64,000 nt of DNA from an uncultured Candidatus Poseidoniales archaeon (GCA_964577145.1 CAZNXM010000004.1:1747-65746); one strand, 5' to 3'. Counted from the stretch's first letter, positions 8,312-52,694 are shown. Translations and numbers: made by a program. Notes: generated by a model not told the origin, from the letters alone.

Positions 8312-8740
8312 GTGATAATGATGGGAATGACAATGGCAGAACTAACTCAGGCGATTCAACAACATATCGACATGGAGATGGATTCAGAAGTAGCCTGTGG
8401 AATGGCAGAGCACGCTCTTGGCTTCTTTGGCTTCTACGACCGAATTATCGATAACGCTCTTGAGCCCACTGATAGGAACTTGTTTTACATGTTTCAAGAC
8501 TATGACCTTCTTACTACAGAATCAGAGGAGACCACCCTTTGGGATGGTCGAGAATGGAGGATTCACTATTGGCGCTTCAAGCCAGAACTGCGCGAGCGTG
8601 TAGAAGCATACATGTCTCGCAAGGTAAAGGAAGTCGAAATCGACCCATTTGGCGACATTTACACCGGTGGTGGCACGATTTGGACCCGAGAGGGCGACAA
8701 GCCTGTCAATCCCAATGCTTTCACCTCTGACCACTGGTGA
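8312..8740 (+). CDS. Hypothetical small cytoplasmic protein
   Basis: 142 aa ORF with no recognisable motif. Its stop overlaps the start region of the large surface-protein ORF. Confidence 0.4.
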   Translation: MIMMGMTMAELTQAIQQHIDMEMDSEVACGMAEHALGFFGFYDRIIDNALEPTDRNLFYMFQDYDLLTTESEETTLWDGREWRIHYWRFKPELRERVEAYMSRKVKEVEIDPFGDIYTGGGTIWTREGDKPVNPNAFTSDHW

Positions 8741-8793
8741 AACTGTACTTGGACCCACAAGTATTGAAATGGAGCAGCGCGAGCAATATCCAT

Positions 8794-11745
8794 ATGAAGA
8801 CGAGGAGCCTTATTCTCGCCGCGCTCTTTTTGACCTCGGTGGTTCCACTTTCCACCGCAGATGATCCAGTGGGAATTAGCATTCTCACCGATTGGGGAGA
8901 TGACCATGCTTACATAATCACAGGCGATGTGAATCTCTCTGATGTCAATGTCACACATTCACGTGATGGTTCATCTCTTGATATCGGTTTGATTTACGAT
9001 ACTACAGGAGCTGACCTTCGCCTAGAACTCAACTCCACTTTGGAATATGAGGACGTCATTACAGTCTCAGTAGGAGAATTTTCGCGAACAATAACTGTGG
9101 GATTGTGGAGCCAACCTTTGGCAGACCACGAGGTTACAACCACTACGCAATGGACGATGGACCAGCAATGGACAAATGAGTATGGTCAACAGAAATACAT
9201 CTTGACTTTCGATGGCAATGGTTGGCAAGCAAGAGAGGGGAATATCCTCGAAGCTTGGGAAATGGGTGATGGTGCTTTACAAATTACCAGCAATACTGAC
9301 GATGGTGGTATAATCCTAAATTTAATTCTTGAATCGGTTTGGAAGAACGAGACAATTGTAGATGGAATTCTTACCGGGCAGGTTTTCGATGCACGTGGTG
9401 CTGGTACTATCGGTGTCGAAAACAATGGCACAGATGGAGAGGTAACAATCGAGGGTCTAGTGAGTGATGCGTGGATTAATCGTTCTCTAATCAATGGAAT
9501 TGTCGATGAAAAATTCAGACTTGAGGCCAATGGCTCAATCGAGGTATTGAATAACGAAAGCGAAGAAGGAAATTTTTCTTTGACAGGAGTTCTCGCTGTA
9601 TTATTAGTCGAGACTCACGATATCAATGGCACTAGAGTTCTCGACCATCAAGAATTTGAGGCAACTGCAGATCTAGTAATCGAGGATAACGATACTAGAA
9701 TCGATATTTCGCTTGAAGTATTCCAGCAATTAGAGCGCTGGGAAAATGGAGTGATGGTCAATGCCTATAGTAATCTAGAGGGCCATGGCTCATTTGGATT
9801 AACCAGTTCAGATGAAAATTCAAGTGTAAATATCAATGGCACAATTTATGATTTCCACCAAGCCAGTGAAGATGGTTTGACGACAATCGACGACTTCCAT
9901 CTCGATGGAACGATTAGTGGAGATGCATCGGGAACCTTTGGAGTCGTGAGAAATATCGAAGCCGATGGACAACAAGCAAGTTGGAATGGTACAACATATG
10001 ATGTAATCGTCATTCACCAGGAAGATTGGTTCAATCTAACTGGGATTGCTGGACTACCTAATTCTGAGATTGGAGCAGGAGCGCATCACAACGAATCATG
10101 GGATTACATGGTTCCCCAAGAACACTGGGACAATCGTTCTATTCGCACCGTTTGGCAACAAACCGGCAATGACCCAAGTAGCGGCGATGAGGTTCACAAC
10201 AATTCCCCAATAGAGAAGCCACTAGAGCAACCAGATGTTGAAGAAATGCTTGGCGATGTAAATGTAGGGAGAGAGATGGGCTTTGTCCCTCTTGATGCAA
10301 AAGAAGGTGATGTATTCACTCTTGACCACCAAAACGGAATGGCTCTAACAGTAACATGTGGAATTCCAGAAGTTAAACCGATTGATGGTCACATGGTAGA
10401 TACTCTCGCTTGGACGGGAGTATATTCTTCAGGCGTAGATGGTAATGCAAGTGGTAATATCATCGTAGATGGGCCGTTATCTGGACTCAATGTTGAAATT
10501 GAAAGGATAATCATTGCACCATTTGGTGAAGACAACCAAACAGTAATTGTAACTGAGAATAAACAGATAGATCGTGTACTATCACCATCAATAATTTCAA
10601 TTCACGACAATACTCCACCAACGATAGTTAGCGCTACGCTCAGAGAGGGTGTAGTCACAGGTGAAGGTGGGCCAATAGCTCATCTTGAAGTCGTGGTTTC
10701 AGATCCCGATTTCAATGTTGAGAGCGTAACAGCTAACCTCTCTGGAATAGGCGGAGGAGTTGTGGAACTCTCAGATAAGGGGATGCAAGGAGATACAGAA
10801 ATTGGCGACGATATCTGGACCACTCAAGTTGTTGTAATGGGCTTAGAATTAGGAAATATTTCTATCATCATTTCTGCAGATGATACCTTTGAGTCGGCTG
10901 TAAACCTCAATACTACAATAGAAGTGAGAAATCAACCACCACGTCTTGCAGAAATCACAATAGTTCCTCATAAAATTGCACGCGGTGATATGCTCATTAT
11001 CAATGCAGAGGTAATTGATGGTCATGGAGTTGCAAGTGTGCAAATTGATTTACGCGATAAAGGAGGATCGCTCCAAGACCTTGAACGAATTGGTGAATTT
11101 TGGATTGGTGAAGTGGTAATTCCCGATGGAATGTCACCTGGAGACCATCTTCTAAAGGTCAGGATGGAAGATGACCTTGGTTCTTCAATTATCGTTACTA
11201 GAACTAAGTTTTCAGGCCTCCACCATGTCGAACTTTCCGAGGATGAGGATGTAAAGGTAGAGGTGCTAAACACCCCTCCACAAATCGATGTTGGAGAAAC
11301 AAGAGTGATTACTGTTGGCGATGAAGATAAGGTGTATACATTTACTGTAACCATAACCGATCACGATAATCTTGCATCTGCGAAAATAAAACTTGGAGCA
11401 TTCGCACCACCCGGCGATGAAGGCAAATGGCTCGTGTTAGAACCAAATGGCGATGATACATATTCAATCACGGTTTCAATTCGTTCAACTATCGTAATAG
11501 GAACCCACGAAGTTCTGGTTAGAGCCACTGATATCTATGGTGCCCAATCATCTGATGAATCACTAGCAGTAATTATTCAAGAAGAAGACAATTCTGTAAT
11601 CTCTGGTGATGGACCCGATACCAAATTAATTACCTATGCAGCTGTTGGAGGAATGATAATTCTTGCAATTGCTGGGGCTACGATTTACATCCGCCGCGGT
11701 AGTGATGGTGAAGGTGGCGGATTAGGCGGATTCGGTGAAGTCTGA
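8794..11745 (+). CDS. Very large secreted cell-surface protein (~980 aa) with C-terminal transmembrane anchor
   Basis: Signal peptide MKTRSLILAALFLTSVVPLSTADD (ORF opens at 8737). A long acidic, Thr/Asn/Gly-rich extracellular region. C-terminal TM LITYAAVGGMIILAIAGATIYIRRG followed by a Gly-rich tail. Confidence 0.7.
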   Translation: MKTRSLILAALFLTSVVPLSTADDPVGISILTDWGDDHAYIITGDVNLSDVNVTHSRDGSSLDIGLIYDTTGADLRLELNSTLEYEDVITVSVGEFSRTITVGLWSQPLADHEVTTTTQWTMDQQWTNEYGQQKYILTFDGNGWQAREGNILEAWEMGDGALQITSNTDDGGIILNLILESVWKNETIVDGILTGQVFDARGAGTIGVENNGTDGEVTIEGLVSDAWINRSLINGIVDEKFRLEANGSIEVLNNESEEGNFSLTGVLAVLLVETHDINGTRVLDHQEFEATADLVIEDNDTRIDISLEVFQQLERWENGVMVNAYSNLEGHGSFGLTSSDENSSVNINGTIYDFHQASEDGLTTIDDFHLDGTISGDASGTFGVVRNIEADGQQASWNGTTYDVIVIHQEDWFNLTGIAGLPNSEIGAGAHHNESWDYMVPQEHWDNRSIRTVWQQTGNDPSSGDEVHNNSPIEKPLEQPDVEEMLGDVNVGREMGFVPLDAKEGDVFTLDHQNGMALTVTCGIPEVKPIDGHMVDTLAWTGVYSSGVDGNASGNIIVDGPLSGLNVEIERIIIAPFGEDNQTVIVTENKQIDRVLSPSIISIHDNTPPTIVSATLREGVVTGEGGPIAHLEVVVSDPDFNVESVTANLSGIGGGVVELSDKGMQGDTEIGDDIWTTQVVVMGLELGNISIIISADDTFESAVNLNTTIEVRNQPPRLAEITIVPHKIARGDMLIINAEVIDGHGVASVQIDLRDKGGSLQDLERIGEFWIGEVVIPDGMSPGDHLLKVRMEDDLGSSIIVTRTKFSGLHHVELSEDEDVKVEVLNTPPQIDVGETRVITVGDEDKVYTFTVTITDHDNLASAKIKLGAFAPPGDEGKWLVLEPNGDDTYSITVSIRSTIVIGTHEVLVRATDIYGAQSSDESLAVIIQEEDNSVISGDGPDTKLITYAAVGGMIILAIAGATIYIRRGSDGEGGGLGGFGEV

Positions 11746-11817: not shown

Positions 11818-13488
11818 ATGCGGATAGGACCTATCCATATTCCGTTTACAAAAAAGGTTGATACTCCTTTCATATGGCTGAATAATCCAGATGCCATCAA
11901 AGTCGATGCAATGCCATCGAAGATTTCTTTCACTCCTGACCGGCCCTTTTCTATTGTTGGTTCCATTTTCACTATGGGATTCATTATTTTTGGACTAATA
12001 TTAGCGGGCATCCCTATAGGAATTATTGCAGCAGAAACCATTTACCCAATGCTCGATGAGGATAGTGATGAACCATGCTGGCCAGACCAAGATTCCGCGA
12101 TAATATTGTCAGACGGAATGGTATATTGTGACTTGGGGGGGTCGACTGAGGAATACACCGATTATCAGATTGCAGATGGCCATTACAGAATGACGATGTA
12201 TGGAGAAGAAGTCTACGAATACAGATGGTCAGAAGAAAATGGCACAATCACCTATGCATGGTTAGATGGAGATTACAATTACTATGAATGCTGGCAATAC
12301 ATTAGAGCCTCAGCCTTGCCAGAGAACTTTACAGGCGATGACCTCATTGTGAAATATGGCACAGAGGATGAATCTTATCCAGAATGGTGCAACGAGAGTC
12401 CGGATAATTCTAATATCGTGTATAGCGATACCAATTCAACCCCATTTGATGGTGAGTTATTGTACAATATTTATCCCAGTGACATGGCATATAGCATTGA
12501 AACAACTCAATTCATGGATGAAGGCAATATCCGTCACACATATCACGAGTTGGATTGGGACAATCAGATTTATTTTGAAGAAGTAGCTTTTCTTTCAATC
12601 TTTATGTTCGTTGGATTAGCAATAATGTTGGCCCCCCTGCTCACAAGAAAACGGATTTTAACCTTCGATACTATTGCCAACCAAGTGACTGAAGAATTCG
12701 CCAAATGGCCTAGGTTCGGCACCCACCGTGCAACAATACAGACGCCTCTGTCTGTGGACATTGTAAGAAATACTAGGGAAGTTCATCATAGTGAGAGTGG
12801 AGATGAACATTCTTCAGGAAGGACATGGACTACCTATCATGATGGAATCGACATCACTGTCGATTTAGTTGGCCAAGGTCCACAACCAGTCCTCTTCTTG
12901 GAGGGTAATGATGCAAGAAAGGAATACGAATCGATTCTTGGTCAACTATTCTTTGTATTGGGGCTCGATCTTTCTTCAGCAGAAGAGGCGATAGATAGCA
13001 CTGAAGAATTTGAAGAAGAAGCAATTTTGGGAGAACCTCGTCAAATAGAGTCGAAAGAAAACTTCCCTGGAATCATATTTATCGGAGGAGATGTGCCATA
13101 TACAGTTGGCCAAACTATTGCATATACTGCCGCTTGGATTCTAGGTATCTGGGTCATTTCAGGACTTGGTTACACCTTCCTTTCACCATTCTGTGGATTA
13201 GCAGCTTTAGTGACCATCTTACAATTCCGAGGGATAATGAAGACATTACGAGGGGAATCGATAATGGTAAAAAATGGTGAAACTATGACTTTCAGGGATA
13301 CAAAGGACCCCACTCGGTATGATGGAAAGATGGCCGAGATGATAGATGGCCTTGAACAGGCGGATTCTAAGTTTGAAGAAGCCACTACTGTGAAAATGGA
13401 TTGGATGCCATTTGAGAATCTGAAGATGGTTAGGCTTGGTCCGATTATCGGTGGAATAATCGCTCTTGTAATCTTCGTCTTATGGTGA
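11818..13488 (+). CDS. Polytopic membrane protein, function unknown
   Basis: 556 aa with several hydrophobic helices (FIIFGLILAGIPIGIIAA, IFMFVGLAIMLAPLL, AAWILGIWVISGLGYTFL, IIGGIIALVIFVLW). It lies directly downstream of the large surface protein. Confidence 0.5.
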   Translation: MRIGPIHIPFTKKVDTPFIWLNNPDAIKVDAMPSKISFTPDRPFSIVGSIFTMGFIIFGLILAGIPIGIIAAETIYPMLDEDSDEPCWPDQDSAIILSDGMVYCDLGGSTEEYTDYQIADGHYRMTMYGEEVYEYRWSEENGTITYAWLDGDYNYYECWQYIRASALPENFTGDDLIVKYGTEDESYPEWCNESPDNSNIVYSDTNSTPFDGELLYNIYPSDMAYSIETTQFMDEGNIRHTYHELDWDNQIYFEEVAFLSIFMFVGLAIMLAPLLTRKRILTFDTIANQVTEEFAKWPRFGTHRATIQTPLSVDIVRNTREVHHSESGDEHSSGRTWTTYHDGIDITVDLVGQGPQPVLFLEGNDARKEYESILGQLFFVLGLDLSSAEEAIDSTEEFEEEAILGEPRQIESKENFPGIIFIGGDVPYTVGQTIAYTAAWILGIWVISGLGYTFLSPFCGLAALVTILQFRGIMKTLRGESIMVKNGETMTFRDTKDPTRYDGKMAEMIDGLEQADSKFEEATTVKMDWMPFENLKMVRLGPIIGGIIALVIFVLW

Positions 13489-14048: not shown

Positions 14049-14120
14049 TGCGAGAGCCGGGACTCGAACCCGGGTTCAAGCGTTGGCAACGCTCGGTGAT
14101 AACCACTACACCACTCTCGC
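14049..14120 (-). tRNA. tRNA-Gly (anticodon GCC)
   Basis: The minus-strand sequence GCGAGAGUGGUGUAGUGGUUAUCACCGAGCGUUGCCAACGCUUGAACCCGGGUUCGAGUCCCGGCUCUCGCA folds as a cloverleaf: 7-bp acceptor stem, U8, D-loop with GG, anticodon loop UUGCCAA, T-stem CCGGG/CCCGG with loop UUCGAGU, discriminator A. No encoded CCA. Confidence 0.8.
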
Positions 14121-23184: not shown

Positions 23185-23973
23185 ATGCCGCTTATGTCAG
23201 ATGCTGAGGATGCACTTGTGGTTGCAAAAGACCTCGGTAAAAGGTACGGAGAATTCATTGCTTTGCATCCTTTGGATGTGAAGGTATCTTCAGGAGAATT
23301 TTTTGGCGTTTTTGGTCCAAACGGCGCTGGCAAATCGACCTTTATCAAACTTCTAACAGGGCAACTAAGACCAAGTATTGGCGGTGTAGAAGTATTGGGC
23401 ATCAATGCTGCAAGAAACCCTCAGAAATTAAAAGCCAATATTGGAATTGTGCCAGAATCAGAATCCCCTCCATCCTATCTTACCCCAACCGAATTCCTTC
23501 ATTTTGTGTGTAAATTACGTGCTGTGGAAGACCTTGAGGCTAAGGTAGAGCACTGGATGGACTGGTTTGGCCTCGATGAGAAGAAAGACACGATGTGTAA
23601 GGACCTTTCAAAGGGCCAGCGACAGAAGGTAATGCTCGCCGCAGCATTCATCCATGAACCTCGTCTATTATTCCTCGATGAACCATTCGCGAATCTCGAT
23701 CCAATCTACCAACGAAAATGCAGACAATGGCTCCTCGATCACGTAGCAAATGGTGGGACAATTTTCCTATGTTCTCATGTACTTGAAATGGCAGAAAGAA
23801 TGTGCAATAGAATGGCTATTATCAATAACGGGAAGGTTCTTGCTGCAGGAACCGTAATCGATATGAAATTGAATAGCGAAGAAACCCTCGAGGATGTATT
23901 CATCCGCTTAGTTGGACATTCGATTGAAGAAGCAGAACGCCGAAGCGATGAGGGACTAAACGAGGAGGAGTGA
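23185..23973 (+). CDS. ABC transporter ATP-binding protein
   Basis: Walker A GPNGAGKST, ABC signature LSKGQRQKV, Walker B LLFLDEPFANLD. Confidence 0.85.
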   Translation: MPLMSDAEDALVVAKDLGKRYGEFIALHPLDVKVSSGEFFGVFGPNGAGKSTFIKLLTGQLRPSIGGVEVLGINAARNPQKLKANIGIVPESESPPSYLTPTEFLHFVCKLRAVEDLEAKVEHWMDWFGLDEKKDTMCKDLSKGQRQKVMLAAAFIHEPRLLFLDEPFANLDPIYQRKCRQWLLDHVANGGTIFLCSHVLEMAERMCNRMAIINNGKVLAAGTVIDMKLNSEETLEDVFIRLVGHSIEEAERRSDEGLNEEE

Positions 23974-25673
23974 TTATGTCAATCAGCTTCTCCAGCCGTG
24001 ACTGGTCTGAGGCAGAAGCCTCGACAGTAGCGGTGACCTTCGATAGTGCAGGCGGTGGAAAACACCTCCATAATCCGCTAACGGGATGGGCTGCTTTCAG
24101 TGCTACATTCAAGGTAATGTTCATCGAAGAATATCGTGAGAATCTTGACTTTGCAAAAAAACGCCGTATCATGATGTTTCCACTCATGGTTGCATTAGTG
24201 ACGATGGTTGCGACAATTGGACTGCAATTTTTGGTAGGAGAAGGTGCTGCTCAAGACACCGAATCAATATCAAATTCCAAAGCCTTCACTTGGCAAGAGA
24301 TGCGATTTGCCCTCCATTTGCCTCTATTGATGTTCAGTCTTGGAATGGGTTCGTTCGCATTCCTTGGAAGGGAGAGAGTACTTGCACGTACCGGGACAAA
24401 GAACTACCTTCTTGCAAGTCCAGCCTTGCAACCATTAACCAACTCAACCGCACATTTCGCATATTATTGTAAGGATTTATCATATTACGTAATGCTAATT
24501 CTAACTCCAGTAATTGGTGGAATGGCAGTAGGGATTTCTCTAGAGTGGTGGACCGATGTTAGTACACCTCTTGAGTGGTCCAGTCTTCCACGCACTTGGA
24601 TTGCTATGACGGTAACTCTTGCCGAAGGATTGGCCCTATCTTTCATTGCCTCATCATTATGGCTTCTTGGAGGGTGGGTAAGTCGTATTACTCCAATAGC
24701 GATAATCGGACTTGGAACAATCGTAGGCCTTGGATATGTACCTAGACAAACTCTCTTGTGGGGTATGGCAACACAAGCACCAGGTGGTGAAATCTGGGCA
24801 ATTCCAGCAGTCGTACTTTCGCTTTGTGCAGCGTATTTTGCAGCGCAATTAGTTCGAGATGATTTTGAAGTAAAGGTCGTTGCAAAGAAAGAATTATTCA
24901 TGCCAATTTGGAACAAATTACGCTTCCTTGGAAAGGGAACAACGCGCCTTCTAGTTGCTAAGGAAGCGGTTGATTTAGTTCGTTCAGGCTCACTAAAGAA
25001 AATGACTGTGAGTTATTCAGTTCCTCTAATAGTACTCTTATTGATGGCCTGGTTGGTCGATTTTGCAGAAGCACCAATCCCAATCAATCTACTCAGTTAT
25101 GCGCCCTTCCTCGGCTTTTTCGGATTCAATTTTTACTCATGGCTTACGGCCCTTGATTCACCTGAGCACATGAATGGTCTTCCGTTATCAGTTCCACAAT
25201 TGATCAGGGCGAAAGTTGTGGTTTATTTCCTCGCAACATCATGGATTTCTATTCTCTTCGTTTGCCTCATGGCATGGAAACTCGACGAATGGGCAGTCCT
25301 TCCAATCGCACTGATAGTAATGATTGCTAACAGTATCTACATTGTTTCATTGACTGCATTCTTGATGGGACTAGCTCCCAATAAGGCGATATTTGATGCA
25401 AAAATAATGACATGGTTTTGGATTGGTACGGTCATACCTCTTCTAGCACTATTCCTTCTATCCTTCACTCAAGGTGATGTTTCATTCTATGAGAATTGGA
25501 TGAGTGCGGTACAAGACGGTGGATTGGATGCGGAAGCGGTTGAATTTACTAGCGAAAAGATGGAATCAGGATTCAAGGGTATTCTTGGCGTCAGCGTAGG
25601 ACTGGTGGCGGCTTCAATTCTATTGATGAAACTACTCGACCGCAAATGGGGAAGGGCAGAATTCAACAACTGA
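23970..25673 (+). CDS. Large polytopic membrane protein, probable ABC-2-type permease partner
   Basis: 567 aa with at least 10 hydrophobic helices. It overlaps the ABC ATPase stop by 4 nt. Confidence 0.5.
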   Translation: MIMSISFSSRDWSEAEASTVAVTFDSAGGGKHLHNPLTGWAAFSATFKVMFIEEYRENLDFAKKRRIMMFPLMVALVTMVATIGLQFLVGEGAAQDTESISNSKAFTWQEMRFALHLPLLMFSLGMGSFAFLGRERVLARTGTKNYLLASPALQPLTNSTAHFAYYCKDLSYYVMLILTPVIGGMAVGISLEWWTDVSTPLEWSSLPRTWIAMTVTLAEGLALSFIASSLWLLGGWVSRITPIAIIGLGTIVGLGYVPRQTLLWGMATQAPGGEIWAIPAVVLSLCAAYFAAQLVRDDFEVKVVAKKELFMPIWNKLRFLGKGTTRLLVAKEAVDLVRSGSLKKMTVSYSVPLIVLLLMAWLVDFAEAPIPINLLSYAPFLGFFGFNFYSWLTALDSPEHMNGLPLSVPQLIRAKVVVYFLATSWISILFVCLMAWKLDEWAVLPIALIVMIANSIYIVSLTAFLMGLAPNKAIFDAKIMTWFWIGTVIPLLALFLLSFTQGDVSFYENWMSAVQDGGLDAEAVEFTSEKMESGFKGILGVSVGLVAASILLMKLLDRKWGRAEFNN

Positions 25674-25691: not shown

Positions 25692-26237
25692 ATGGGGCTG
25701 GTAATCGCAGTTTGCGGAATGCCAGCAAGTGGCAAAGGAGAGTTTGCTTCCATACTTGCTTCCAAAGGGATACCTGTTCGCTCCATGGGTGATATGGTGA
25801 GGGCCGAAGTTGCCTCACTTGGAATCGAGGAAGGGCCAAATGTGTTTGGCGAAATAGCAACTGCTCTGCGTGCAGAGCACGGTGATGACATACTTGCAGT
25901 TCGTTTGACTTCAGCCGTTGATTCATTATTGGAGGATCATCCTATCGTACTAATCGAAGGAATGAGAGGTACTGCAGAGAAAGCAGTATTCGTTGAACAT
26001 TGGGGGTCTTCATTCATTTCAGTGGCGATAACCGCGGATACCGAAACAAGATTTCAAAGAGTAATTTCCCGCGGTCGTTCTGAAGATGGAGACAGGTCAA
26101 CTTTCCAACTTAGAGATGAGAGAGAAAATGGATGGGGTTTGGAACAAATAATTTCTGAAGCGGAATTCACATTCCAAAATAACCGAGATGTAGCCGAACT
26201 CACACTTCTTGCTTCGGATTGGCTAACATCCCTGTGA
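25692..26237 (+). CDS. P-loop nucleotide kinase-like protein (adenylate/dephospho-CoA kinase fold; resembles archaeal UPF0200 family)
   Basis: N-terminal P-loop VIAVCGMPASGKGEF and a kinase-like ~180 aa length. Confidence 0.5.
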   Translation: MGLVIAVCGMPASGKGEFASILASKGIPVRSMGDMVRAEVASLGIEEGPNVFGEIATALRAEHGDDILAVRLTSAVDSLLEDHPIVLIEGMRGTAEKAVFVEHWGSSFISVAITADTETRFQRVISRGRSEDGDRSTFQLRDERENGWGLEQIISEAEFTFQNNRDVAELTLLASDWLTSL

Positions 26238-26260
26238 GTGGGCCCGTAGGGCCCCTCACA
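26233..26260 (+). terminator. GC-rich hairpin overlapping the stop codon (tgtgagtgggccc-gta-gggcccctcaca)
   Basis: ~12-bp stem with one bulge around a gta centre. The TGA stop of the upstream gene lies within the 5' arm. Confidence 0.45.
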
Positions 26261-26315
26261 CATAGACAAGGTCATAACCGGCGATTGACCGTGAAGAGGA
26301 TGCTACGGGGGTGTC

Positions 26316-27845
26316 GTGTACATGGCGAGAAAGGGAGGAGGAGGCCAGAAGCGCCAACGAGGCCAGCAACGAGCGCAATATGATGAGCTAGACAAATACC
26401 CTGTCATGCCCCCTCATGCCTTTGCGCGAATCGTTCGTGACAAGCGCTCTCTAAACATCGTATACCAAATTATTGAACCCCCCCTCAATAAGAAAGAAAT
26501 GGAGTGGCGAGATGAATTACTAGATATTTTCATCCGTTCACTAACCGCAAATATCGAGGAGATAGATGCCGACCCCATCGCCTACCTTAGAACAGCAATG
26601 GACAAGGTCATCAAAGCCTATGGTATGAAGATAAATAAGAAATCCAAGTCCAAACTATTCTATTATCTTAGAAGAGACATGGTAGGCTATGGAAAGATGG
26701 ACGTTCTGATGAACGATGCTAACGTTGAAGACGTATCGTGCGATGGAACGGGAGTACCGATTTTCGCTTATCATAGGAAATTTGAGTCTGTTGAAACTAC
26801 ATGTTCTTGGGATACTGATGAAGAACTCGAAAGTTACGTGATTAAATTGGCGCAGCGGTGTGGTAAACACATTTCAGTTGCAGACCCTCTGCTCGATGCT
26901 ACATTGATGGATGGTTCGCGAATTGTCATGAAGCTCGGCCGAGAGGTTTCTACTAGAGGTTCAGCATTTTGTATTCGACGATTCAAGGACGATCCGTTCT
27001 CACCTTGTGATATTATTGCATTCCGAACCCTTTCTTCTTTGATGGGCGCATACCTGTGGATTTCATTCCAGAATGAAGTTCCAATGCTATTCGTAGGCGG
27101 TACTGCATCAGGTAAGACTACCACGCTTAACGCAATGTGTATTTTCATACCTTGGCAGATGAAGATTGTTAGTATCGAGTCAACTCGTGAAGTAAACATT
27201 CCACAACCAAACTGGGTCCCAGGACTAACCCGGCAAGGATTCGGTGGAGAATCATCTGAGGGTGAAATCGGTGAGTTCGAACTTCTAAAGGCAGCTCTTC
27301 GTGAGCGACCTGAGTACATTATCGTGGGAGAGATTCGTGGTGCAGAAGCATATGTTCTATTCCAAGCAATGGCAACAGGTCACTGTGCTTATTCGACAGT
27401 TCACGCCGACTCAGTACCTTCTCTAGTCCACCGCCTAGAGAACAAACCGATTGATATCCCACGTGTTCTTCTTCCTGCACTGGAAGCCTGTGTGATTCAA
27501 ATTCAGACCAGAATTAATGGACGACGTGTTCGACGTTCAAAGCAAATTGTCGAAATTGTAGGTATAGATCCAAACTCAATGGAAGTCATTACGAACGAAG
27601 TTTTCCGATGGAATGTTGCAAATGATGATTTCATATTCTCTGGAAAGTCATATGTTTTGGAGAAGATTATGGTTAAGATCAATTATAGTCAAGAGGACAT
27701 GAGAAGGGAACTTAGAACCCGTAAGCGTATTCTCGAATGGATGGTGCTCAATGACATTCGCAAGGCCGATCAGGTCAGCCAAATTATCACAGAGTACTAT
27801 GTTAGGCCACACGAGATTCTCGCAAGAGTTGATGGAATGCGCTGA
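26316..27845 (+). CDS. FlaI/ArlI-like type IV filament assembly ATPase (archaeal secretion ATPase superfamily)
   Basis: Walker A VGGTASGKTTTLNAMCIF, Walker B/Asp box region, FlaI-like N-terminal domain (IVYQIIEPPL). Length 509 aa. Confidence 0.85.
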   Translation: MYMARKGGGGQKRQRGQQRAQYDELDKYPVMPPHAFARIVRDKRSLNIVYQIIEPPLNKKEMEWRDELLDIFIRSLTANIEEIDADPIAYLRTAMDKVIKAYGMKINKKSKSKLFYYLRRDMVGYGKMDVLMNDANVEDVSCDGTGVPIFAYHRKFESVETTCSWDTDEELESYVIKLAQRCGKHISVADPLLDATLMDGSRIVMKLGREVSTRGSAFCIRRFKDDPFSPCDIIAFRTLSSLMGAYLWISFQNEVPMLFVGGTASGKTTTLNAMCIFIPWQMKIVSIESTREVNIPQPNWVPGLTRQGFGGESSEGEIGEFELLKAALRERPEYIIVGEIRGAEAYVLFQAMATGHCAYSTVHADSVPSLVHRLENKPIDIPRVLLPALEACVIQIQTRINGRRVRRSKQIVEIVGIDPNSMEVITNEVFRWNVANDDFIFSGKSYVLEKIMVKINYSQEDMRRELRTRKRILEWMVLNDIRKADQVSQIITEYYVRPHEILARVDGMR

Positions 27846-27884
27846 AAATGAGTTCTAGATTTGATGTTTGGGAAGGGATAATGG

Positions 27885-28904
27885 ATGGAGTTAACCGCTT
27901 GGCAGAAAATTTGTCACCGCTTATTAGGTGGCCTTTTCAAGAAGCGAGCTCGTGAAGACACAGAACTTGGTGACAACCTAGTAAAGGGGAATATGCCAAT
28001 AATGCCAGAGGTATTTTTGGCTCAAAATTTCATGGTCACTATTCTAGTACTGATTTTTTGTATCCTAATCAATTTAGCATTCTTTTTCCCCGTTATCGGA
28101 TTCATAGATTATTATGAGTCATTACCTGACGAATCCACGGCAGAAGCCTGTTTCGTTTGGGAATATTGGAATGAGGACTTAGTTGATACCACATTACCTG
28201 CAAATGGATGTCCATACTTTGCCTACCTTGAATTTCCTGATTGGGTAGAAACACTGATTCCGATAATTTTCGGTCCGGTTATTCCATATTTTGTTTTCAA
28301 ATATTTGAAGAAAGGGGCTTCAAGGTCAGCACATGCAAGAGGGGTAGCTCTTGAGAAATACTTGCCTTATGCAGCATCATATACTGCAGCGATGGCTGCT
28401 GCAAATGCAACCCCGCACAAGATTTTCAGGTCACTAGCAATGAATGGAGATATCTATGGCGAGATTGCTTATGATTCAGCTATGATTTATCGCGACGTGA
28501 GCCTACTAGGATTTGATTTGCTTACTGCGATGAAAATGTCGGTTGACCGTGCAGCATCCCCTTGGATGACAGAATTCTTCCAGGGTATGGTTGGAACGCT
28601 AACAGCCGGAGGCTCGCTAAAGTTGTATTTCCTAAATCGTGCTGAGCACTATATGCGTGAGAACCGAACCAGATTGCATGAATTCTTAGAATCTTTAGCA
28701 ATGTTGGCTGAATCTTATGTTGTGGTTGCAGTTGCAATGCCTCTTTTCCTAATTGTCATGCTCGTGATTATGTTCTGGGTTAGCGGTGCTGGAGCACAAA
28801 TGAGTGAGGGTACATTGTATCTGGTTGTGATGTTGGTATTACCATTAATCCACGTGATGTTTGCATTCTTAGTATGGTCGTCCAGTGAAGAACAAAAAAT
28901 GTGA
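27885..28904 (+). CDS. FlaJ/ArlJ-like (TadB/C, T2SSF-domain) membrane platform protein, N-terminal half
   Basis: One T2SSF-like cytoplasmic domain (LPYAASYTAAMAAANATP...LLGFDLLTAMKMSVDRAASPW...LKLYFLNRAEHYMRE) flanked by TM helices. Confidence 0.65.
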   Translation: MELTAWQKICHRLLGGLFKKRAREDTELGDNLVKGNMPIMPEVFLAQNFMVTILVLIFCILINLAFFFPVIGFIDYYESLPDESTAEACFVWEYWNEDLVDTTLPANGCPYFAYLEFPDWVETLIPIIFGPVIPYFVFKYLKKGASRSAHARGVALEKYLPYAASYTAAMAAANATPHKIFRSLAMNGDIYGEIAYDSAMIYRDVSLLGFDLLTAMKMSVDRAASPWMTEFFQGMVGTLTAGGSLKLYFLNRAEHYMRENRTRLHEFLESLAMLAESYVVVAVAMPLFLIVMLVIMFWVSGAGAQMSEGTLYLVVMLVLPLIHVMFAFLVWSSSEEQKM

Positions 28905-28916
28905 GGAGGTGAGGAT

Positions 28917-30434
28917 ATGGCGCGCAAGAAGAAGAACAAAATCATCGTCGATCTCGATCTTCCAAAGGATGATTCAACAATGACAAAACTCTATGCGATT
29001 TTGATGGTTACAGGCTTCATCGGCTTGGGTTGTTTTGGATTTTGGCTAACTAATTCTCACTTTACAACTTCACCAAATGGTCAACCATTATTCGTTAATC
29101 TAGCCTGTGGTTTTGATTCAACTGTAGAACTAACTCCGACATTAAATGAAACCTGCCCCATGTTGGAGGATACTCCAACTCCAATTATCTATGAAACTGA
29201 AGAGCCATGGCTTGAGTTTAAAGAGCAGGGTCAGTATTTCGATGTACCTGGACGTAATATTTCTGAATTAAATGGCGCCCCTCCTCCAGTCCAACCATTT
29301 ACGGGCACATGCAATATCGATTCATCTCTACCGGCTGATTATTCATTTAGAATCTACCACACCGATGGCCAAATAGTCGCAAGGCATGATGGTAATAGCC
29401 ACGATGAGAATGACAAGTGTTACCTCCATGTAGAGAATATGGAAGTGGCGAATATGTATTCAGTTGTAATTGTTTCAAATGAAGAAATTAATTCTGCAAC
29501 ATATCGCTTTGAGATGGATTACTTTGATGGCACTCCGGAATATATCAATAACAAATCACTTTGGATTGGTCCAGAAGTAAATCTGGGTGGAATGAGTTTG
29601 AGGCCTACTATTTTCCTCAACTTCTTTGGTTTTGGATTCTTCATGTGTTTCTGGCCGGCTTCTTTCTATTGGGACCGTGTAAAAACAAGAATTAATGATA
29701 TGGAAGAGAAATTCCCTGATTTCTTACGAGATCTTGCAGAGTATTGGAAGGGGGGTTTGTCAATGACTGTAGCGGTTCAAACGTTGGCGAAATCTGAATA
29801 CGGTGCCTTGAACCATGAAGTAAAGAAAATGAGTGACCAATTAAGTTGGGGTGTTGCATTTTCCGATGTCATTCACATGTTTGCAGAACGTGTCGGTACT
29901 CCTCTTGTCAGGCGTGCAATCTCTTTGATTTCTGAGGCTAACCGTGCTGGAGGAAAGATTTCTGATATTCTTGTTACTGCAGCAAATGATAGCCGTGAAA
30001 TTAAGTTCCTTGAGGGCGAACGAGTACGCTCTATTTCATCATACATTTCAGTTATCTGGACTTCATATGGTGTATTCTTAGGAGTTATTGTCGTTCTTGC
30101 TAAGGTTTTCATTCCTGCGATTGCGGGTTCAAATTCTGAACCTAGTGATGAAGGAGATGGTGGCGGTCAAGCTATTGGAAACATGGTTATCAGAAATATC
30201 GAGCCTCTGTTTTTCCTGACGATTTTCTATTATGGTGTTACGATGCAAGCATTGGGTAATGGAAATATGGCTGGACTGATGGCTACTGGAAGATTTAGCA
30301 GTGGAATGAAGCATGCTGGGCTGATGATTCTTCTTTCCTTACTATGTTTCAATTTCATCGTTTACACCCCCGACCTCATAGGAATTACAACTTTGCCAGG
30401 CTTCAATGTCTCAGCTGGTGTTTTCAGACCATGA
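28917..30434 (+). CDS. FlaJ/ArlJ-like membrane platform protein, C-terminal half with ~200 aa extracytoplasmic insertion
   Basis: Preceded by RBS GGAGGTGAGGAT. N-terminal TM, then a Cys-containing hydrophilic insert, then a T2SSF-like domain (LRDLAEYWKGGLSMTVAVQTLAKSEYGALNHEVKKM...LISEANRAGGKISDIL) and C-terminal TM helices. Confidence 0.65.
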   Translation: MARKKKNKIIVDLDLPKDDSTMTKLYAILMVTGFIGLGCFGFWLTNSHFTTSPNGQPLFVNLACGFDSTVELTPTLNETCPMLEDTPTPIIYETEEPWLEFKEQGQYFDVPGRNISELNGAPPPVQPFTGTCNIDSSLPADYSFRIYHTDGQIVARHDGNSHDENDKCYLHVENMEVANMYSVVIVSNEEINSATYRFEMDYFDGTPEYINNKSLWIGPEVNLGGMSLRPTIFLNFFGFGFFMCFWPASFYWDRVKTRINDMEEKFPDFLRDLAEYWKGGLSMTVAVQTLAKSEYGALNHEVKKMSDQLSWGVAFSDVIHMFAERVGTPLVRRAISLISEANRAGGKISDILVTAANDSREIKFLEGERVRSISSYISVIWTSYGVFLGVIVVLAKVFIPAIAGSNSEPSDEGDGGGQAIGNMVIRNIEPLFFLTIFYYGVTMQALGNGNMAGLMATGRFSSGMKHAGLMILLSLLCFNFIVYTPDLIGITTLPGFNVSAGVFRP

Positions 30435-30447
30435 GGTGGCAGAGTTG

Positions 30448-30888
30448 TACGATGACGACTCAGGACAGATTCACATCCTTGAGATGTTGACATTATTCTG
30501 GCTCTTTTTCATGTCAGCAACTTTTCTAATTCAAATCCAGGTGCCAGATTCTCCATCACAGTCTATTGATGCAAGTATGGAGTTCGCAGGACAAGATGCC
30601 ATCCGATATGGCCTTGGTATTGACTCTCAGGGAGGCGAATATGACTCTAGACTTGCTGAATTACTTTCCAGTGGTAACGAGGACGCAGCATGCGAACTAA
30701 TCCAAGGAGCGATAACAAGTGGTTACGAAGGAAATTGTTGGCTAGCCCGTGATTCAGGAACTAGTCACCCTGCAGGAGAAGTAGGGACTCCTGCTGGCCG
30801 TACAATCACTACACATTCACTAGTTGCAGTCGATGACCATCTGTGGACGGTCTCACTTGATGTGTGGACTCGAGGAGGTGGCGAGTGA
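30448..30888 (+). CDS. Small pilin-like protein with class-III-like signal peptide (acidic leader + GQ + hydrophobic helix)
   Basis: ...YDDDSGQIHILEMLTLFWLFFMSATFLIQ. RBS-like gaggtgg at 30436-30442. The ORF opens at 30406 overlapping the upstream gene; a GTG/TTG start is likely, so coordinates are approximate. Confidence 0.35.
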   Translation, partial: YDDDSGQIHILEMLTLFWLFFMSATFLIQIQVPDSPSQSIDASMEFAGQDAIRYGLGIDSQGGEYDSRLAELLSSGNEDAACELIQGAITSGYEGNCWLARDSGTSHPAGEVGTPAGRTITTHSLVAVDDHLWTVSLDVWTRGGGE

Positions 30889-31319
30889 TGCTATCTGAAA
30901 GGGATGAAGAGGGTCAAATGCTCTTGGCAACAGGCATAGTACTGATGATGTCACTTCTTTCGATGGCCATTTTTGGAGTAAAGATGGCAGGAATTGCAAT
31001 GCCACACGACCCTGCGGGTGATACTACAATCACCGCTTCAGGAGAAGTGGTGGAATCATTGCCTGCATTGACTTACGATAGAGCCCAAATCTGGTATGAT
31101 GGTGGCTTATCTGAGTTAGAGAGTGTAGAGAAAGCGATGGCCTCGTTACACGACGACATCTTACACCATGGTGAGATTAGAGGAGTAGAACTCAAATTAC
31201 TCGACATTACAGTAAGTGAGTTGGACGGTATTATCACTGTAAATTGTGAATTGGGGGCTGCTGATAGAAATGCAATGCTTGCAAATCCAATCGAGTTTAC
31301 TATTGATCTCGATGTTTAA
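30888..31319 (+). CDS. Small pilin-like / FlaF-FlaG-like protein with class-III-like signal peptide
   Basis: MLSERDEEGQMLLATGIVLMMSLLSMAIFG, then a ~110 aa soluble domain. Its start ATG overlaps the upstream stop (TGATG), and an RBS gaggaggtg lies 8 nt upstream. Confidence 0.45.
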   Translation: MLSERDEEGQMLLATGIVLMMSLLSMAIFGVKMAGIAMPHDPAGDTTITASGEVVESLPALTYDRAQIWYDGGLSELESVEKAMASLHDDILHHGEIRGVELKLLDITVSELDGIITVNCELGAADRNAMLANPIEFTIDLDV

Positions 31320-45774: not shown

Positions 45775-48084
45775 TTGGTGACAATGGTGTCTGGGACTCG
45801 TATTCGTTCAATTCATCAGAGGAGGATCCTCGATTGGTTAGCGGACGGAGGAGGCACTGTTTCAGAAGTTTCTAATGCACTATCGATGCGAATGCCACAT
45901 GCTTCAGCCGCATTGAAAAAGTTGAGGGAATCGGGCGACGTCGTACGTGACGACCTAAATATTCGAGGCTCGAGATTGCGTCTTTCATCACAAGGCCTGG
46001 CTAGACTTGAGTCCGATGGACTCGATCGTCTAGAGGCGTCAGTTCGCTGGCCCCCACCTCCCGGAGCGGCCGGAATTGTTCTTGCGAGAGATGGCTCTAT
46101 GCTGTTACTTGGTTATGCATCAAAGCCTCAAGGACCCTTGATTGGGCTCCCAGATAGACCAATGGACGATGATTCTGGAGTGGTCGAAAATTCCAATGGA
46201 AACAAAGGGGGCGGGGAGTATTGGCGTTGGGGCGTCATCAGAGGAGATGGCCCTGTTTGGTGGGATTTAGAAAATGGACGCCGTGCAGAAGCTCCCGAAG
46301 ACACCTCTCCCTTGACCTTGGCAGCGTGGATGGAGCGACCAAAAATAATGGGTGTTGTCAGAGTTCGTCTCTTAGATGATACGAGAGAATGGCCCTTAGG
46401 TGTAGGAAGTTGGTTCTCTTCTCTACCTCAAGGAATTTGGCCAGACTTACCTCAGCAATTATGCGATGGCGATGTAGCATTTGGCCGAGCGGGTAATTCC
46501 GGTCCTTTAGTAAGGCCGAGGGATGGAGTTCATGCATTATTGGGCAAAAGAGATGATCAAGCTCTCGTGTTAAGAGCGGTAGCAAAAGGTGCATTGTGTA
46601 TTGCAGATTTCGATTTGCTTGGGCGTGAAGGTGCCCCTATAGCATTTGCAATTCTCAAGTATTGGCTTCGAGAAGTCCATCCCCGCCTTTCTAATGAGAC
46701 AATTTCAGAGAGAATGGCCAAGATAAAGTCAGACCTCATCGAGGGAATATCTACAGCGTCAACTCGTCGTTTATTAGCCGACTTCCCCGGCAGAGAATGG
46801 GCCGAAGAAGGTGTAATGGATACACGTTCACTCTCACTAAGAGCAGCACGCGCAATGTTGGCTTATGCTCTAGAGTCATCCAATCAACCGATTGTTGTCC
46901 ATTGGCGCTGGCCTATTGAACGAGGTGTATTGGACCAACTCGTATCAGATAGCCGTTGCCGAATGGTAATCTGTGAGGGGACTGCACTTGAATTGCCAAT
47001 GCGCTTGACATCGATGGGGGTCCATGGAAAGTTCAACCTAGAATTACCAGATAGAGTACAGATTCCAGTAAGTCTTGATGGAGATCTCTCTAGTGAGATG
47101 CCAGAGAATTGGGAAATGCCTGCAAATCCATCCGAAATAGTGCGAGGGGATTTGACCCCTCCGAGAAGTAAACCCCTCAATCAAAGAGAAGCGATGTGGG
47201 TTGCTTGCAACCTTACTTCAGATGGTAATGATACTTGGGCTGACATGGTAGAGGAGGAATATCCGCTTGCTGCATGGATTGCTACTTCACCTGAACAGAG
47301 AGGTTCGAGATGGAGGCGTATTTCCAAAAAGATTGATTCGATTTGGGCTAGCCTTGCAAATCTAGAATCTTTTGATATTGAACAATTATGTGATTTAGCT
47401 CTTGATAATACTGATGCATATGAATCACTTGTGGAGCGAGTTCGCTCTAGTCCGATGATAATGCTTGATCAAGTACACCTCATTCCTCATCCTGCAATGG
47501 CTAGTGCGTTATTATCTTCTACACATTGGCTTTCAGCATCCACAATGGAGTCAGTAGATGTTGCTTGTTCAGCATTTCTTGAAGACCCCATTGATATCGA
47601 TGGAGTAATGATGGCATGTTGGGATTCAGAACTCAAAGAGAAGGTTGCTTTAGCATGCCCTCATCACCATGCGCTTTCAGTTGGAGTACAAGACAGAGAT
47701 GCGATTATGGGAATAATTACTGCTGTTAATCATTCACTATGGAAAGAGAATGCTCTGGAATGGGTCCGCTTATTTCTCTCTTCATCTCAAGGAAGAACGA
47801 TGCTAAGCGAACTGGAGATACCATGGGCTGTATTATTATGTGATTCTGTACTATTGAGCGAGGACCTGAAATTAACTCATCACATGAAGAGTGGGCCTGG
47901 TCACGACTCATTGCTGGATGTACTCGATGCATTAGATGCTAGAGAAAGAGGAATTGCACCACCAAAAGGTAGAACTCATCCAATGGTGGGTTGGCTATTC
48001 CAAACAACTGTACCTCATGTCCCAATTCATTGTGAAGGCAACATGGAGATACACATTGCTCTACACCGACGCCTTCATGCATGA
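45775..48084 (+). CDS. Large (769 aa) hypothetical protein with N-terminal winged-helix DNA-binding-like domain
   Basis: N-terminal RRILDWLADGGGTVSEVSNALSMRMPHASAALKKLRESGDVVRD (MarR/ArsR-like wHTH). The remaining ~650 aa carry no recognisable motif. Confidence 0.55.
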   Translation: MVTMVSGTRIRSIHQRRILDWLADGGGTVSEVSNALSMRMPHASAALKKLRESGDVVRDDLNIRGSRLRLSSQGLARLESDGLDRLEASVRWPPPPGAAGIVLARDGSMLLLGYASKPQGPLIGLPDRPMDDDSGVVENSNGNKGGGEYWRWGVIRGDGPVWWDLENGRRAEAPEDTSPLTLAAWMERPKIMGVVRVRLLDDTREWPLGVGSWFSSLPQGIWPDLPQQLCDGDVAFGRAGNSGPLVRPRDGVHALLGKRDDQALVLRAVAKGALCIADFDLLGREGAPIAFAILKYWLREVHPRLSNETISERMAKIKSDLIEGISTASTRRLLADFPGREWAEEGVMDTRSLSLRAARAMLAYALESSNQPIVVHWRWPIERGVLDQLVSDSRCRMVICEGTALELPMRLTSMGVHGKFNLELPDRVQIPVSLDGDLSSEMPENWEMPANPSEIVRGDLTPPRSKPLNQREAMWVACNLTSDGNDTWADMVEEEYPLAAWIATSPEQRGSRWRRISKKIDSIWASLANLESFDIEQLCDLALDNTDAYESLVERVRSSPMIMLDQVHLIPHPAMASALLSSTHWLSASTMESVDVACSAFLEDPIDIDGVMMACWDSELKEKVALACPHHHALSVGVQDRDAIMGIITAVNHSLWKENALEWVRLFLSSSQGRTMLSELEIPWAVLLCDSVLLSEDLKLTHHMKSGPGHDSLLDVLDALDARERGIAPPKGRTHPMVGWLFQTTVPHVPIHCEGNMEIHIALHRRLHA

Positions 48085-52283: not shown

Positions 52284-52694
52284 TTTATTACACTTCTCCT
52301 CATATCATTCAAGGTTGTCCGGCTGGCAGACACAATGCATGATGACTTACGTGAGTCCGAGTCCGCCATATAAATTTGTTTGCTGATGAAGAATTAAAGT
52401 GAGGAATAGCCGACTTATTCAACTTCAATTGGAGTTCATAAAGGGGAGGGCGTTTTCAGCATGATTATTGAAAAAAACAGCATACTGTCGGTCTGAATCC
52501 GGAAACTTTTCCGTAGGGAACTTTTTTTCCAAAGCGATAGAGCTGTCAAATCCGACTCTCTATTTGGAAAGCCAAAGTCAATTCGAAAACAATCGTAACA
52601 AGCTAAGATCAAATTTTGTATATAACCTCCAATTGGAGAATTCAAGATTAAGTGTGAAAATTACACTCCCGTGAGTTATTTTTTGATGTTATTA
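52284..52694. promoter_or_regulatory. Candidate replication origin (oriC) upstream of orc1/cdc6
   Basis: A 411-bp non-coding region with AT-rich tracts. A perfect 12-bp palindrome CTCCAATTGGAG at 52627-52638 and a near-copy CTTCAATTGGAG at 52423-52434 bracket the AT-rich core. An inverted repeat tttccaaa...tttggaaa lies at 52527-52572. Confidence 0.4.

Follow-up and report, generated by a model that had tools for sequence, protein, structure and literature searches.

A five-gene locus at positions 26316 to 31319 (+ strand) of a 64,000-nucleotide (nt) stretch of DNA from an uncultured Candidatus Poseidoniales archaeon (GCA_964577145.1 CAZNXM010000004.1:1747-65746; the whole stretch is referred to as the window) very probably encodes a non-archaellar type IV machine and, judged from its sequence, appears to be a reduced version of the euryarchaeal clade 2, or PilB4-type, family. 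The full pilus scenario, in which these genes form a self-contained operon whose products build a type IV pilus-type machine, distinct from the archaellum and present in reduced form in Marine Group II (MGII), is given a probability of roughly 0.55. An earlier note on this DNA had proposed a compact type IV filament-type locus lacking archaellin and FlaH, and this description stands. All five open reading frames (ORFs) are present on the + strand (26316-27845, 27885-28904, 28917-30434, 30406-30888, and 30864-31319, encoding 509, 339, 505, 160, and 151 amino acids [aa], respectively), and T2SSE and T2SSF profiles are matched. Archaellin (FlaB/ArlB, PF01917) was found neither in the 64-kb window nor in the ±10-kb flanks of relatives, and the window contains no Pfam match to FlaH/ArlH or FlaF/FlaG; this includes the flanks of the locus, where flaB, flaH, flaF, or flaG would have pointed to a conventional archaellum operon. 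An A24 prepilin peptidase is also absent from the window.

The likely true gene starts are the ATPase ATG at 26322, the TTG at 30445 for small protein 1, and the ATG at 30888 for small protein 2, the latter two being chosen because of homolog lengths and junction sequences. With these starts, the predicted features (all on the + strand) are as follows.

26268-26281, +: putative B recognition element (BRE)/TATA-like promoter element AAGGTCATAACCGG, about 47 nt 5' of the ATPase ATG, from the alignment of upstream regions.
26308-26314, +: Shine-Dalgarno-like G-rich motif GGGGGTG, from reading of the sequence.
26322-27845, +: secretion/assembly ATPase of the VirB11/FlaI/PilB superfamily, 507 aa; ATG at 26322, ORF opening with GTG at 26316.
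27885-28904, +: platform half 1, T2SSF, N-terminal half of FlaJ/TadC, 339 aa, from Pfam and the ArlJ model.
28917-30434, +: platform half 2, T2SSF, C-terminal half of FlaJ/TadC, 505 aa, from Pfam and the ArlJ model.
About 29049-29576, +: predicted extracellular insert of platform half 2, about 180 aa (residues ~45-220), placed by the flanking transmembrane (TM) helices.
30445-30888, +: small protein 1, DUF7288-like and prepilin-like, 147 aa; TTG at 30445, ORF opening with ATG at 30406.
30888-31319, +: small protein 2, DUF7261-like and prepilin-like, 143 aa; ATG at 30888, ORF opening with GTG at 30864.

The organism belongs to the Poseidoniaceae (Marine Group IIa [MGIIa]), and the relatives of its ATPase are named Candidatus Poseidoniaceae or Candidatus Poseidoniales. 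A scan of species-representative genomes yielded 587 pattern-matched stretches encoding an ATPase relative, and the best 80 of these were used for locus comparison (relatives' loci are designated by L numbers). These 80 loci cover MGIIa, Thalassarchaeaceae (Marine Group IIb [MGIIb]), Marine Group III (MGIII; 56% ATPase identity), and another metagenome-assembled genome (MAG) of Thermoplasmata. Comparison of synteny across related MAGs, as the earlier note had suggested, showed that the order ATPase, platform half 1, platform half 2, small protein 1, and small protein 2 is kept in every complete MGII locus among them, including basal MGIIb. The five-gene block is far beyond chance.

The ATPase had been assigned to the FlaI/ArlI family. 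The superfamily assignment is sound (Pfam T2SSE, 1e-25, with a weak PilB3_C match and a faint PilB3_N match), but identity with archaellar FlaI is not supported. FlaI is the top NCBIfam match and also the name given by the Joint Genome Institute (JGI), but the score on the archaellum FlaI/ArlI equivalog NF058587 is 399.4 bits and does not reach the cutoff of 550. Control ATPases from pilus loci of haloarchaea, MGIII, and Thermoplasmata score alike (395 to 413 bits), and a score of 399 is therefore the signature of a non-archaellar paralog. The closest structure in the PDB is Archaeoglobus fulgidus GspE (2OAP; 400 bits, versus 264 bits for Sulfolobus FlaI), with which the protein aligns end to end (residues 26 to 504 on 32 to 506). 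A bacterial Tad/Flp-type ATPase is not supported (TIGR03819, 130 versus a cutoff of 373; CpaF structures, 119 bits). Walker A (residue 262), Asp box (285), Walker B (335), and His box (361) motifs are all intact, and the enzyme is predicted to be catalytically competent and of the hexameric type. Homologs are 507 to 510 aa long, with 80 to 96% identity across hundreds of MGII relatives, 56 to 60% identity to MGIII/Thermoplasmata relatives, and 41 to 45% identity to the haloarchaeal ATPases of PilB4-type loci. The MGII form is the shortest. MGIII/Thermoplasmata ATPases are 150 to 250 aa longer (662 to 761 aa; e.g., L003, 7777-9831, and, in MGIII, L079, 9821-12049), the extra part including zinc-ribbon (DZR) domains in L003, and haloarchaeal ATPases are the longest (833 to 989 aa).

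Both genes described earlier as FlaJ-family platform genes encode T2SSF domains (half 1, Pfam 8.8e-12, residues 166 to 292; half 2, 3.3e-12, residues 269 to 394), but the description requires correction in one respect. The two proteins fit complementary halves of ArlJ/FlaJ (model positions 66 to 239 of 555 and 225 to 449 of 465, respectively), and they therefore represent one TadC/FlaJ platform split into two genes. A sequencing frameshift was considered as the cause of the split and rejected, as half 1 is a separate gene in all loci examined. Half 2 carries an insert of ~180 aa with four Cys residues between its first two TM helices. A basic N terminus, together with the cytoplasmic location required of the T2SSF domain, predicts that this insert is extracellular. 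No other part of the operon is so poorly conserved (19 to 54% identity, versus 80 to 95% in the T2SSF domain). The nonsynonymous substitution rate (dN) for the same genome pairs is ~0.05 in the ATPase, 0.12 to 0.15 in the platform core, 0.21 to 0.36 in the small proteins, and 0.42 to 0.45 in the insert; the synonymous rate (dS) is saturated, making dN/dS unreliable, and only the dN gradient was used. Half 2 homologs are 299 to 320 aa long in L003 to L005 and 393 to 427 aa long in MGIII.

The two small proteins each possess one N-terminal TM helix after a [G/A]Q junction and are the only ORF products in the window with such N termini. Their leaders are 7 to 9 residues long (with a slash at the junction, MYDDDSG/QIHILEM... 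in small protein 1 and MLSERDEEG/QMLLATG... in small protein 2). Across 73 homologs of small protein 1 and 75 of small protein 2, G or A invariably occupies position -1 and Q position +1. Small protein 1 also has E at +6 in 73/73 homologs, H at +3 in 61/61 MGII and 10/12 distant copies, and invariant C96 and C111. Position -2 is mostly K or R in MGIII/Thermoplasmata, and it is acidic or neutral in MGII. K or R at -2 is the textbook class III signal and is usually preferred by archaeal prepilin peptidases. The class III-like signals claimed for these proteins are consequently upheld as to junction and single helix but are non-canonical in MGII, and because MGII leaders lack K/R at -2, cleavage of the small proteins is only putative.

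Family searches with the five proteins matched the ATPase and the two platform proteins, but gave no direct family match in Pfam or NCBIfam for the small proteins; a match to DUF7333 (E 0.045) was weak and was dismissed. Relationships were recovered through intermediates. The MGII family of small protein 1 aligns by hhalign with MGIII/Thermoplasmata homologs (98%, E 1e-12), and these align with haloarchaeal DUF7288 (94%, E 1e-7), four other DUFs remaining below 2%. Pfam DUF7288 is matched by the L005 homolog (E 4e-4), and the motif Q-x-H-x-L-E is common to small protein 1 and haloarchaeal DUF7288 (RA/QAHTLE). The chain for small protein 2 is weaker (70% from MGII to the intermediates and 36% from these to DUF7261), and Pfam DUF7261 exceeds its cutoff for the L005 homolog only. 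Small protein 2 and DUF7261 share a Q-[ML]-L-L motif (RA/QLLLVG or QMFLIGG in DUF7261) and are both placed next after DUF7288. Taken together, the profile chains, the common motifs, and the order of the genes identify the small proteins as putative DUF7288-like and DUF7261-like members 2 and 3 of the five-gene PilB4-type pilin set. Their structural models, of moderate quality, contain a TM helix, helices, and a small beta-sheet, an alpha/beta rather than a beta-sandwich architecture; the AlphaFold2 model of small protein 1 (mean predicted local distance difference test [pLDDT] score, 71) predicts an N-terminal helix and an alpha/beta head.

Haloarchaeal loci on annotated megaplasmids provide the reference order ATPase, T2SSF, DUF7287, DUF7288, DUF7261, DUF7266, and DUF7289. 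This arrangement is that of the PilB4-type branch of euryarchaeal clade 2. Archaeoglobus loci of the branch show the same order as the series arCOG06117-04652-07777/06552-03926-02911, annotated as predicted pilins, in which arCOG03926 is the predicted major pilin and arCOG02911 a minor pilin (PMC4858521). Matched by gene order and length only, DUF7288, DUF7261, DUF7266, and DUF7289 would occupy the positions of arCOG04652, arCOG07777, arCOG03926, and arCOG02911, respectively. Two tadC genes are often found in clade 2 loci, and the locus of Aciduliprofundum boonei consists of arCOG02911-FlaI-TadC-TadC (PMC4858521). The order in MGIII/Thermoplasmata is DUF7289-like, DUF7266-like, ATPase, two T2SSF genes, DUF7288-like, and DUF7261-like, with K/R-G/A-Q signals; the upstream genes in L003 to L005 and L079 to L085 encode a Pilin_N/DUF7289 protein of ~340 aa, whose N terminus is that of classical archaeal pilins, and a DUF7266-like protein of ~150 aa. 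Hidden Markov models (HMMs) for DUF7287, DUF7266, DUF7289, and the MGIII upstream genes, of which the three DUF models do detect the MGIII and Thermoplasmata copies, gave no match in the window or in the 10-kb flanks of any MGII locus. The MGII form therefore keeps only the two pilin-like genes that adjoin the platform genes. As a separate observation, giant surface proteins (1,324 to 1,428 aa, plus a second of >570 aa) are encoded directly 3' of the pilus genes in L003 (13050-17831) and L005 (12946-17989). Those of L003 to L005 carry CARDB, CarboxypepD_reg, and SpaA-like domains, are absent from MGII and MGIII loci, and are possible pilus-associated adhesins.

Within the block, the intergenic gaps are 39 and 12 nt and are followed by overlaps, the ATG of small protein 2 overlapping the stop codon of small protein 1 as TGATG, and Shine-Dalgarno-like motifs are present. 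Alignment of 50 distinct MGIIa upstream regions revealed AAAG[GT]TTATAGTCGG / AAGGTCATAACCGA as the sole strongly conserved stretch, with the variant AAGGTCATAACCGG in the window and AAAG[GT]TTATAGTCGG in other genera. It presumably functions as a promoter. Given this conserved promoter-like element, the Shine-Dalgarno-like motif, and the short gaps and overlaps, the five genes most likely constitute an operon of their own, with the upstream ATP-binding cassette (ABC) and kinase-like genes as neighbors by synteny only. A stable GC-rich hairpin, GTGAGTGGGCCCGTAGGGCCCCTCAC, lies just 5' of the promoter element at 26234-26259, where it overlaps the stop codon of the kinase-like gene (-22.5 kcal/mol within a 51-nt fold). 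It is kept in the closest genus-level relatives (e.g., L007 to L014), is not kept in other MGIIa genera, and may be a terminator or insulator separating the kinase-like unit from the pilus operon.

The flanks are as first described: an ABC ATPase and an 11-TM membrane protein followed by an AAA_18 kinase-like gene lie upstream, and a convergent 2-phosphoglycerate-kinase-like P-loop gene lies downstream. The ABC pair occupies 23185-25673, and its membrane protein (567 aa, ~11 TM helices) has no Pfam or NCBIfam family. MGII relatives, among them MGIIb.9/10, have the pair directly upstream; it is inverted in L030, and MGIII loci lack it. A functional link of the locus to the ABC transporter and kinase was set aside because a conserved promoter-like element precedes the ATPase gene itself and because the ABC pair is absent in MGIII and rearranged in L030.

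Divergent MGII loci (EAC30, RS348, NAT36, and SP338) belong to MGIIa.1 and MGIIb.9/10, according to a comparison of MAG names with Table S3 of PMC6336850. In the same study, FlaI/FlaJ calls were restricted to MGIIa and MGIIb.9, 10, and 12 to 14, and FlaK was annotated in 83/92 MGIIa and 26/158 MGIIb genomes. The phyletic spread of the locus thus matches that of the archaellum and of FlaK. On different contigs, the same MAGs possess an archaellum operon that encodes a FlaI and a FlaJ of its own as well as up to three archaellins. In SP3054, the archaellum is on PBGS01000033 and the pilus-type locus (L014) on PBGS01000014; in EAC30, they are on NZRR01000031 and NZRR01000042 (L059), respectively, and in RS348 and SP338 the archaellum is likewise on other contigs (contig names compared with PMC6336850 Table S3). 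Loci of 80 to 84% identity were first taken as MGIIb-like, which implied persistence in MGIIb lacking an archaellum and FlaK. This idea was dropped because Table S3 places the MAGs in MGIIa.1 and MGIIb.9/10, with archaella, and gives no FlaI/FlaJ calls for MGIIb.11 or 15 to 17 (PMC6336850). Two further loci likely lie on mis-binned contigs: L019 (NZEQ01000077.1), MGIIa-type and 90% identical, was deposited in a “Verrucomicrobiales bacterium” MAG, and L020 (CAUYXQ010000070.1), 91% identical, in a “Thalassarchaeaceae” MAG.

In the proposed mechanism, the ATPase hexamer would bind a heterodimeric platform at its cytoplasmic T2SSF domains. The small proteins would enter the membrane with their N termini inside and be cleaved after G/A by an A24 peptidase (FlaK/PibD) encoded elsewhere; ATP-driven movement of the platform would then pull them out of the membrane, their N-terminal helices stacking to form the core of a filament. 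The E at +6 of small protein 1 could correspond in function to the Glu conserved in bacterial pilins, and the variable ectodomain of half 2 may touch the cell envelope or the filament base. The small proteins would be low-abundance priming or minor pilins of a surface (adhesion) pilus with the bulk subunit encoded in trans; this role is favored because the locus always retains them and the predicted major pilin is missing in cis. Given that absence, the pilus itself is inferred only, and several points weigh against it. Neither the window nor the 10-kb surroundings of any MGII locus encode a filament subunit of the expected major type (DUF7266 or PilA/Pilin_N). The MGII leaders lack K/R at -2, the profile link of small protein 2 to DUF7261 is modest, and a deep HMM search with its family against 1.84e9 representatives returned 66 MGII-type sequences and no family outside MGII. 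In the literature, no PilB4-type system has an experimentally defined function, the Haloferax member being expressed and functionally undefined, and no expression data were found for MGII.

The main alternative to a pilus with its bulk subunit in trans is a short pseudopilus, i.e., a minimal surface-assembly machine in which the small proteins alone form a piston or scaffold that exports or positions surface proteins, similar to the Bas system or the bacterial type II secretion system (T2SS). It is regarded as possible, with odds clearly below even. Scores on Bas models are far under their cutoffs (BasE, 189.8 versus 1,000; BasF, 26.4 and 20.5 versus 1,300), and the same BasE score is obtained for all control pilus ATPases. 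The promoter-like element of the ATPase gene indicates that the ABC genes are probably a separate unit, and they are unlinked to the locus in MGIII; moreover, orthologous loci elsewhere hold full pilin sets. A bolder form of the idea, which is somewhat less probable again, is that MGII runs a stripped-down type IV machine without any major pilin, its short pseudopilus serving either as a piston that exports or positions surface proteins or as an adhesin that can be retracted. Such a machine would comprise two fast-evolving mini-pilins with an acidic or neutral -2 signal and a split platform with a hypervariable extracellular domain and, if real, would add a functionally new class to the type IV filament devices of archaea, in one of the most abundant archaeal groups of surface waters.

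The small proteins might instead be uncleaved bitopic assembly factors, similar to PilN/PilO or GspL/M, that stabilize the platform while all filament subunits are encoded elsewhere. They are always directly 3' of the platform genes, whereas other pilin genes move or vanish; this position, the leaders without K/R, and the predicted architecture of TM helix, helices, and small beta-sheet would all suit such a role, which is nevertheless judged doubtful. Very improbable is a paralogous FlaI/FlaJ pair serving the archaellum in trans as an accessory or alternative motor or assembly module. The shared phyletic spread with archaellum and FlaK (MGIIa and MGIIb.9, 10, and 12 to 14) and the FlaI annotations are compatible with it, but the FlaI score does not reach the cutoff and matches the scores of known pilus ATPases, and the protein is nearer to A. 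fulgidus GspE than to FlaI. FlaH, FlaF/G, and archaellin genes are missing nearby, the archaellum operons hold their own FlaI/FlaJ, and orthologous loci contain pilin sets rather than archaellins. A DNA-uptake (competence) pilus has an equally slight chance, as ComGA and ComGB model scores are negligible for the locus proteins, the operon includes no DNA-binding or nuclease gene, and the supplement of PMC6336850 has no ComEC annotation. That supplement (Supplementary Data 10) does list a ComEA-annotated gene as MGII core (135/158 and 84/92 genomes).

The remaining genes of the window are housekeeping only, according to Pfam annotation. Four large ORFs have no Pfam domain (8737-11745, 1,002 aa; 11818-13488, 556 aa; 45775-48084, 769 aa; and 58869-60401, 510 aa), and all four are conserved on related MGII contigs, among whose genes are the 556-aa one and homologs of 766 and 509 aa. 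The sole Rfam match in the window is a tRNA gene (14049-14120, - strand; RF00005, 61.8 bits). Upstream of orc1/cdc6 (51042-52283, - strand), the intergenic region 52284-52694 contains an 18-nt inverted pair, CTTCAATTGGAGTTCATA / TATAACCTCCAATTGGAG, around ~180 nt, as well as short GGAAACTTTT repeats, and may be a replication origin with boxes resembling origin recognition boxes (ORB-like); no GC-skew inflection was found there.

MGII archaea are uncultured and are among the most abundant archaea of the surface ocean. Their attachment to particles has been argued from counts of “flagellar” genes (PMC6461757, PMC6336850), and earlier surveys probably included the pilus-type locus in these counts. 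Genes annotated as FlaI/FlaJ in MGII come from two different machines, and inferences about motility versus adhesion must therefore separate them. For example, NAT36 (L073) was scored positive for flaI and flaJ with 0 archaellins (PMC6336850 Table S3), and MAGs of this kind, with flaI/flaJ but zero archaellins, probably reflect the pilus-type locus rather than an archaellum. The suggestion that this might be an uncharacterized pilus system of a marine planktonic archaeon is accurate for an MGIIa organism and in the experimental sense, but the system had not gone wholly unnoticed. “Additional” flaJ, flaI, and tadC genes in MGIIa were mentioned without analysis (PMC6864105), and the system type, known only via genome comparisons, had already been cataloged by Makarova, Koonin, and Albers in 2016 (PMC4858521). 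What is new is the proposed placement of the MGII locus in the PilB4-type family, the family assignment of the two orphan proteins, and the recognition of a reduced and modified architecture. As a natural minimal version of the widespread PilB4-type system, the MGII form could reveal which of the five “pilin” families are the core ones, DUF7288 and, putatively, DUF7261 being the two that are never lost.

Among known systems, the archaellum uses an ATPase and platform of the same superfamilies; the MGII locus differs from it in the FlaI score (399 versus 550), the split platform, the absence of archaellin, FlaH, and FlaF/G, and small proteins that are not beta-sandwiches. The Sulfolobus bindosome assembly system (BasABC-BasE-BasF) is similar in its compact set of ATPase, platform, and small pilin-like proteins and in having no known long filament, but the MGII proteins score far under the Bas cutoffs, Bas is crenarchaeal, and the MGII locus has shown no link to binding proteins with class III signals. 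The earlier view that the locus is more Aap/Ups-like than archaellum-like was right in excluding an archaellum. The Aap and Ups pili of Sulfolobales are likewise non-archaellar type IV pili with a small gene set, but they are not the nearest relatives: their ATPases belong to clade 4 (PMC4858521), their pilin families are unrelated, and the platform proteins score only 31.8 and 27.7 bits on the UpsF model, against a cutoff of 400. PilB4-type clade 2 systems and A. fulgidus GspE are nearer. The latter (2OAP/2OAQ) is the best solved homolog of the ATPase, as a single protein from another taxonomic order.

The PilB4-type loci (Haloferax PilB4/PilC4 and Archaeoglobus; PMC4858521 Fig. 4B) share with the MGII locus a homologous ATPase scoring ~400 bits on the FlaI model, a T2SSF platform, DUF7288 followed by DUF7261 (in MGII, a DUF7288-like and a putative DUF7261-like gene) with the same order and N-terminal motifs, and the lack of archaellins and FlaH. 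Unlike the haloarchaeal representatives, MGII has no DUF7287, DUF7266, or DUF7289, its ATPase has 507 rather than 833 to 989 aa, and K/R at -2 is lost; its platform also differs from that of PilB4-type loci in being split in two, with a variable ectodomain of ~180 aa. MGIII/Thermoplasmata loci (L003 to L005 and L078 to L085) keep DUF7289-like and DUF7266-like genes upstream, which MGII does not, and their platform insert is smaller or absent, but they share with MGII both the split platform and the DUF7288-like and DUF7261-like genes directly 3' of it.

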